Source: Escherichia phage vB_EcoM_G8. From it: a stretch of 64,000 bases of DNA. Location of the stretch: sequence record NC_054915.1, one strand, 5' to 3'. Position 1 is the stretch's first letter, and each line of letters starts with the position of its first letter. Position numbers and translations under genes: made by a program. The notes beneath the pieces were generated by a model. That model saw only the letters and a program-made list of their open reading frames with translations. It did not search any database and had not been told where the DNA came from. Of the stretch, positions 31,411-32,340 are shown piece after piece.

Positions 31411-31617
31411 TTAGTAAATTGATTTACCAAAGTATTTGTACCAAGTCGGACGTTGATCAATTTTTTCATCTAAGCGTGCTTGATTTATCGCAATGGACGC
31501 TTCGGACGGGTCATAATTTCCTCCAAGTAGTTGATGAATGTATAGTATCAAAACCCTTGGAGGAAGTAAACAACTATTTTTCTGAAGCGCCTGAAATATA
31601 TTTTTCAAGACGTTGTT
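31411..31617 (-). pseudogene. denV: denV (endonuclease V, pyrimidine-dimer glycosylase) C-terminal remnant
   Basis: Frame is open only from 31617 (in-frame TGA at 31618-31620) to stop 31411; ...[32 protein letters not shown] matches recalled T4 DenV C-terminus; no N-terminal two-thirds in any frame. Confidence 0.6.
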
Positions 31618-31855
31618 TCATCAGTGAGCCGTTCTTAGCGATTTCTTCCGGTTTATCGCACATACGCAACAAGGCTTCAAGCTTAACGATATCACTGGTG
31701 CGCTCAAATTTGCGAGTATCTATCTTACTAGCAAGTTCAGAAATACGTGCTAATAGACTTTCAGCTTCAACCAAAGCTGCACCTAGCTTAGTTGCAAATG
31801 TGTCAGTAGCTTCGTTAAGAATAGATTCTGATAAAAATTCACTATATGTTTTCAT
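31574..31855 (-). CDS. Novel protein with capsid-targeting leader, occupying the denV N-terminal position
   Basis: 93 aa from ATG 31855 (ATGA overlap with e stop); N-terminus [11 protein letters not shown] fits the internal-protein leader; no similarity to DenV. Confidence 0.5.
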
Positions 31856-32340
31856 ATATACGCTTTCCAAGTTCCTGTTTTAAATGTTGAGATTACGCGT
31901 TTCGCGCGATTAGGTGTCTGACGATACCATTTAGATTGGGCTAGATTTACTGCTGCTTCATCCCAGCGTTTTTGTTGGAGCATACGTAAAGAATTAGTAA
32001 ATCCTGCCACGCCGGTTTCTCCCATTTGGAAAACCATATTAATCAATGCGCAGCGGCGAACAGCATCAAGAGAATCATAAACTGGTTTTAATTTAGCATT
32101 TCTCAGAATTCCGCGAACAGCAGCATCAACATCCTGATTGAAGAGTTTTTCAGCCTCATCTTTTGTAATTACACCATTGCAATTACGTCCAATAGCTTTA
32201 TCTAATTCAGATTTGGCAACACTAAGTGATGGACTTTTGGTAAGCAAATGACCAATGCCAATAGTGTAATAGCCTTCGGTGTCTTTATAGATTTTAAGTC
32301 TAAGACCTTCATCTATACGTAACATTTCAAATATATTCAT
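31852..32340 (-). CDS. e: Endolysin (T4 lysozyme e)
   Basis: 162 aa; [32 protein letters not shown]... near-identical to T4 lysozyme but with a different extreme C-terminus (..TGTWKAYI); two TATAAATA late promoters upstream. Confidence 0.95.

Follow-up and report, generated by a model that had tools for sequence, protein, structure and literature searches.

An apparent denV pseudogene, very probably left by a single repeat-bounded deletion, downstream of a conserved Ip5-like gene in a T4-like phage

The whole 64-kb stretch of DNA analysed here (hereafter the window) comes from a T4-like phage of Tequatrovirus/Mosigvirus type. The locus of interest lies on the minus strand and starts with nudE (32832-32377), followed in order by e, an ORF of 93 amino acids, a remnant of denV, a gene of 86 amino acids, ipIII and vs.8. 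Just upstream of e, and on the same strand, an exact motif search and reading of the sequence located two T4 late-promoter motifs TATAAATA (32374-32367 and 32361-32354). The number of TATAAATA motifs across the whole window is not above chance, and we read these two as late promoters because of their position and because T4 e is known to be expressed late; late transcripts, which would also cover the 93-aa gene, probably start from them. The e gene itself (31852-32340, minus strand) encodes a T4-type lysozyme of 162 amino acids with 94% identity to T4 e over residues 1-161. Its C-terminus (...TGTWKAYI) differs from that of T4 lysozyme (...TGTWDAYKNL, 164 amino acids), as had been noticed in the original prediction, and DNA alignments with T4 and T2 show that homology ends at ...GCGTATA, i.e. 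in the last codons of e. The same prediction suggested that the boundary of a gene replacement lies inside the 3' end of e; T4 homology does break there, but the 93-aa ORF did not replace the N-terminus of denV. The TA-run spanning the e stop codon and the start of the 93-aa gene (window 31846-31866; approximately 2040-2062 of the IME340 segment compared) is variable, reading TATATA-TGA here and carrying one more TA in IME340, where the C-terminus of e changes from ...KAYI (162 amino acids) to ...KAYIYENI (166 amino acids) and the ATGA overlap between the two genes is lost.

The 86-aa gene (31404-31144, minus strand) lies directly downstream of the denV remnant, beginning 7 nt past its stop codon. 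Its product starts with the leader MKMYQEFIVE|A, matches PHROG 2667 'internal head protein' (E 4e-19) and carries the internal head protein annotation in phages IME340 and G4498. It is followed by ipIII (31082-30504, minus strand; leader MKTYQEFIAE|A), whose 192-aa product is 94% identical to T4 IPIII over 192 amino acids and matches PHROG 5341 (E 1e-117). Neither the three internal proteins nor the denV remnant matched a Pfam entry. The order e, Ip5-like gene (the 93-aa gene, see below), denV, ip gene and ipIII is widespread in Tequatrovirus and Mosigvirus. Further downstream, vs.8 (window 29796-30449, minus strand) is split by an in-frame TAG (30350-30348) into ORFs of 33 and 180 amino acids; T4 vs.8 has TAT at the TAG site and a 9-bp tandem duplication (TTATAGAGC/TTATAGAGA) that is absent from the window, while vs.8 is split in the same manner in G4498 and broken by frameshifts in T2. 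One further ORF of 102 amino acids with a leader of the capsid-targeting type (MKTFKEFINE|A) is found in the ipI-locus region (window 39789-40097, minus strand), which brings the leader-bearing internal proteins encoded in the window to at least four.

The 93-aa gene occupies 31855-31574 on the minus strand. Its start codon ATG (31855-31853) overlaps the TGA stop codon of e (31854-31852), an arrangement suggesting that translation of this gene may be coupled to that of e. Both this ATGA overlap and the capsid-targeting leader of internal proteins had been pointed out in the original prediction, and both were seen here. The leader comprises codons 1-10 (31855-31826), 7 of which are identical in residue to the T4 IPII/IPIII leader MKTYQEFIAE, and tblastn searches with the N-termini of T4 IPII and IPIII matched 31855-31823. 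It ends with L8-S9-E10|S11, a putative gp21-type cleavage motif found by a motif scan. The ORF had also been considered novel, a view that its database matches overturn: the full length of the protein matches PHROG 3499 'internal head protein' (E 1.2e-46), the gene is annotated as internal head protein in the RefSeq records of IME340, G4498 and JK45, and a tblastn search against phage genomes retrieved 237 records with at least 80% identity and 258 below 60%, the latter including the T2 'Ip5 internal head protein' (47.6% identity over 84 residues). A word-indexed protein search, which returned only five near-identical clusters, was less informative than the tblastn search against phage genomes. 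Amino-acid identity reaches 98-100% in relatives such as IME340, SA79RD and JK45, and 12 alleles of the gene contain 13 synonymous and 2 nonsynonymous polymorphic sites. In its leader, gp21 motif and sequence homology the product agrees with the capsid-targeting internal proteins, and the gene is bona fide, conserved and already catalogued as an internal head protein gene.

The mature product is predicted to be near-neutral (calculated pI 6.3), and a single-sequence AlphaFold model of low confidence (pLDDT 73; pTM 0.34) is all-helical, with three helices, and offers no hint as to function. The internal proteins of T-even phages form a diverse set that has the capsid-targeting sequence alone in common (PMC3012670; PMC4122927). 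The 93-aa protein resembles T4 IPI, IPII and IPIII and T2 Ip5 in its leader, in the L-x-E motif followed by a small residue, in its small size and in the location of its gene among ip genes, and differs in that the gene adjoins e whereas T2 ip5 sits in the ipI locus. By analogy with the biology of the T4 internal proteins, it would be made late and in translational coupling with e, the 10-residue leader would carry it to the prohead core, and the gp21 protease would trim it after Glu10, the mature protein then being injected with the DNA.

Downstream of this gene, only the last ~33 codons of DenV are encoded in the window (31512-31411, minus strand, in the original reading frame). A tblastn search of the window matched only residues 96-137 of T4 DenV (E 3e-16) and residues 102-137 of SA79RD DenV (E 5e-18); in T4 endonuclease V, which has 138 residues, the counterpart of the 33 residues encoded at 31512-31414 is the segment 106-137 (PDB 2END, E 2e-13), and the match to PHROG 1183 covers only positions 104-138 of the 139 in the profile. 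These searches bear out the claim that denV is reduced to a C-terminal remnant and that the N-terminal two-thirds of DenV are absent, no frame of the 64-kb window encoding them according to tblastn. The in-frame TGA reported to close the remnant frame upstream is present at 31620-31618. The open frame of about 68 codons described for the remnant is thus correctly bounded by this TGA, but its part upstream of ~31512 is a chance read-through of spacer and is not the frame of the denV start codon.

The 93-aa ORF was originally thought to occupy the N-terminal position of denV. It ends, however, at 31574, and is separated from the denV start by a 59-nt spacer, the contents of which had been overlooked. 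Immediately after the stop codon of the 93-aa ORF (31576-31574), the spacer contains a promoter-like element of the T4 early type (31571-31542, minus strand), consisting of GTTTAC (31571-31566), 18 nt and TACTAT (31547-31542). This element was picked out by eye and by conservation, and was not flagged by a sigma-70 consensus scan; it is similar to the early consensus of T4 given in the record of SA79RD, and is conserved before the intact denV of IME340 and other relatives save for an adjacent 1-nt indel and a GT/AC dinucleotide polymorphism. It is followed by the denV Shine-Dalgarno sequence GGAGG (31524-31520) and by the authentic denV start ATG ACC CGT (31514-31506; ATG at 31514-31512), which encodes M-T-R, the first three residues of DenV. 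Translation from the retained ATG yields MTRPKRPLR-stop (31514-31485), an ORF of only 9 codons.

What remains falls short of a DenV protein in several respects. Full-length DenV has ~137-138 amino acids making up the whole fold, and 310 of the 414 nt of the gene are missing here. Catalysis by T4 endonuclease V depends on the alpha-amino group of Thr2 as nucleophile, on Glu23 and on a cluster of Arg residues; the M-T-R codons are kept in the window, the out-of-frame PKRPLR-stop follows directly, and the Glu23 region is deleted. Nor does one frame run uninterrupted from the retained ATG as far as the C-terminal WYKY segment, the ATG frame stopping after 9 codons. The remnant is out of frame with the retained denV start codon and is therefore a pseudogene fragment, and judging from the sequence denV of this phage would be a non-functional pseudogene, i.e. 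a natural denV-null allele.

Searches for a second copy of denV by tblastn, with both T4 and SA79RD DenV, returned the remnant alone in the 64-kb window and in the complete 167,826-bp genome of G4498, which carries the same lesion; beyond the 64 kb, the absence of denV is taken from this relative, ~96% identical over 25 kb. A weak match of DenV residues 56-101 only (~40% over 49 amino acids, E ~3e-4) at window 13666-13520 (minus strand) lies in the C-terminal part of endonuclease VII encoded by gene 49 and is not a denV copy; the same weak match occurs in G4498, within the annotated endonuclease VII gene.

When a 1.3-kb query across the locus was compared with other phages, some matched it in one piece and many others in two pieces spanning ~310 bp more, and the latter are annotated with an intact endonuclease V. 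The phages IME340, SA79RD, JK45 and KAW3E185 all possess the 93-aa gene, the same spacer and an intact denV of 414 nt. Alignment of the window with one intact allele (IME340) and two deletion alleles placed the gap, and relative to intact denV alleles the window lacks exactly 310 bp. The gap lies inside denV, downstream of the otherwise conserved 93-aa gene, spacer and ATG. In the intact alleles of SA79RD, JK45 and KAW3E185 the 9-bp sequence AATTATGAC occurs twice, 310 bp apart. In alleles of the SA79RD type the upstream copy overlaps the start codon (GGAAATT-ATG-AC-TCGT) and the downstream copy is located at approximately codons 102-105, within the NNYD codons (AAT AAT TAT GAC CCG T); the direct repeat matches exactly at 9 of 9 positions and, if extended, at 12 of 13. 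The endpoints of the gap thus fall in a repeat of the undeleted allele and exactly one copy is left in the window, at the junction (31518-31510, minus strand). As 310 is 3 x 103 + 1 (i.e. 1 mod 3), the frame is shifted across the junction and the retained ATG therefore reads into the short ORF described above.

These comparisons bear directly on the proposal that a cassette swap destroyed denV, a new capsid-targeted gene having replaced the 3' end of e together with the 5' two-thirds of denV. This would fit the end of T4 homology inside the last codons of e and the absence of the 93-aa gene from the T4 interval between e and vs.8. In IME340, SA79RD, JK45 and KAW3E185, however, the same 93-aa gene and spacer precede a complete denV. 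Beyond its own 93-aa gene the window still has the promoter-like element of denV, the Shine-Dalgarno sequence and codons 1-3, and direct repeats within denV flank the 310 bp that were lost. The T4 order, moreover, is e-ipIII-ipII-denV-vs.8 and not e-denV-ipII as had been supposed, so that T4 is not the ancestral template that was assumed. A cassette swap is accordingly extremely improbable. The presence of the 93-aa gene beside an intact denV in relatives implies that the gene pre-dates the loss of denV and is independent of it. We hold with high confidence that denV was inactivated by a single 310-bp deletion between the two AATTATGAC copies, the 93-aa gene being an independent, conserved resident of the locus.

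Such a deletion would have removed one AATTATGAC copy and all the sequence between the copies, leaving the last 33 codons of DenV untranslated and free to drift. The structure of the repeat and the analogy with T4 rII deletions point to slipped mispairing or microhomology-mediated recombination during replication as its probable route. Deletions in T4 rII have their endpoints in short direct repeats, and the slipped-mispairing mechanism is established for them. The denV deletion is like these in having an exact 9-bp repeat at both parental ends and one copy at the junction, and unlike them in being a natural polymorphism common to 13 isolates rather than a laboratory mutation.

The same junction was found in 14 public records representing 13 phages, namely G4498 (two records), BF15, 235Ecol030PP, vB_Eco-B1.1, F27, JM17, FL18, Phaginator, Shinka, JM10, FL12, FL23 and FL44. 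The carriers come from different laboratories and several countries, some being classified as Tequatrovirus and others as Mosigvirus. A short frameshift in the data could in principle mimic a truncated gene, and nothing specific suggests one at this locus; the lesion is an absence of 310 bp and not a frameshift, the remnants show further lineage-specific decay (see below), and an artefact of assembly is ruled out, the identical junction having been sequenced independently in 13 phages. That denV is intact in the real phage and only appears broken through a sequencing or assembly error is, therefore, of negligible probability.

Leaving aside alleles with a secondary frameshift, six deletion alleles differ in the remnant at 3 nonsynonymous sites (S to N, A to D and Y to F) and at no synonymous site; over the corresponding 96 nt, four intact alleles differ at 5 synonymous sites and 1 nonsynonymous site, a contrast that is based on very few sites (Fisher p = 0.048). 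The remnants of FL23 and JM10 have lost a further 1 nt and are frameshifted. Constraint on the denV remnant thus appears to be relaxed, and the remnant seems to be decaying. This pattern also bears on whether the remnant might still be expressed as a small protein, either from a TTG-started ORF of 65 amino acids (31608-31411) or through re-initiation downstream of the 9-codon ORF, or whether its promoter and leader ORF have been co-opted for the 86-aa gene. Each of the eight deletion alleles examined has kept the promoter-like element, the Shine-Dalgarno sequence and the ATG, some public records call the fragment an 'endonuclease', and the short distance of 7 nt to the 86-aa gene would suit co-option; conservation of the spacer may, however, merely reflect a young age of the allele. 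Expression is contradicted by the course of the 65-aa frame, which crosses the promoter-like element and the Shine-Dalgarno sequence and has no ribosome-binding site of its own, by the frameshifts in two lineages and the exclusively nonsynonymous polymorphisms of the remnant, and by the known catalytic residues (Thr2 in its context, Glu23) being deleted or outside any translated remnant. We therefore regard continued expression or co-option as very unlikely, and retain the view of an untranslated, decaying remnant.

Several deposited genomes annotate the denV remnant and/or spacer as a CDS, under the name 'endonuclease' or 'hypothetical protein', e.g. ON871820 (vB_Eco-B1.1), PP400779 (JM17, 530-670 of the segment compared), PP400780 (FL18) and PP400787 (FL23, 629-778 of the segment compared). 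The RefSeq record of G4498 leaves the remnant unannotated, and none of these records uses a pseudogene label. On the plus strand, opposite the 93-aa gene and the denV remnant, there is a TTG-started ORF of 154 amino acids (31419-31883); we found no support for it, and it is probably spurious.

Across the phage collection, 1094 of the 1118 records matching DenV have at least 80% of the protein, so that truncated denV alleles are a small minority. A different partial denV encoding DenV residues 1-35 only is present in OM386662.1 (vB_EcoM_ESCO47, 29628-29732), which suggests that other, independent denV truncations exist. The deletion junctions themselves are of two types, seven alleles reading ATGAC and Shinka ATGTC. 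The ATGTC of Shinka matches the downstream repeat of the IME340 type, two types of downstream repeat existing among intact alleles, and this hints at more than one origin of the deletion or at later recombination. The haplotypes flanking the deletion allele also differ among its carriers, which belong to two genera. Together with the two junction types, this distribution hints that the AATTATGAC pair could be a recurrent hotspot making denV-null alleles in natural Tequatrovirus and Mosigvirus, where such alleles might persist with denV being dispensable or mildly costly in dark gut or sewage habitats; we offer this reading only tentatively, and think it rather doubtful.

With respect to T4 endonuclease V (PHROG 1183; PDB 2END/1VAS), the window retains the last 32-33 codons, 73-89% identical to approximately residues 105-137 of T4 and SA79RD DenV, as well as the native promoter-like element, the Shine-Dalgarno sequence and the first three codons (MTR). 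By contrast, approximately codons 3-105 are gone, the frame is shifted and the translatable product has 9 amino acids. Like T4 v- mutants and T2, this phage exemplifies loss of denV in a T-even background, in T2 and here a natural one. In the syntenic interval of T2 (e-ipIV-vs.8 fragments-vs.7) no DenV homology was detected, which agrees with the higher UV sensitivity of T2, mapped to the u/v locus in classical genetics. The gene is wholly absent from the T2 interval, whereas the window holds a recognizable, internally deleted allele with repeat-bounded breakpoints. Natural loss of denV and shuffling of ip genes are both known T-even themes; our literature searches on natural denV loss in T-even phages yielded nothing relevant.

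For annotation, these results mean that 31411-31608 should read denV pseudogene, and not 'endonuclease' or hypothetical protein as in several public records, and that an Ip5-like internal head protein is the proper label for the 93-aa ORF. The phage should lack a pyrimidine-dimer glycosylase, and its UV sensitivity is predicted to be close to that of T4 v- or T2, which would be relevant wherever UV exposure matters, e.g. in phage preparations and environmental applications. The locus is a clear-cut case, arisen in nature, of a deletion bounded by repeats in a T-even genome, and reveals no new system: the denV lesion is real but ordinary, the only mildly novel possibility being that of a recurrent deletion hotspot at the repeat pair.
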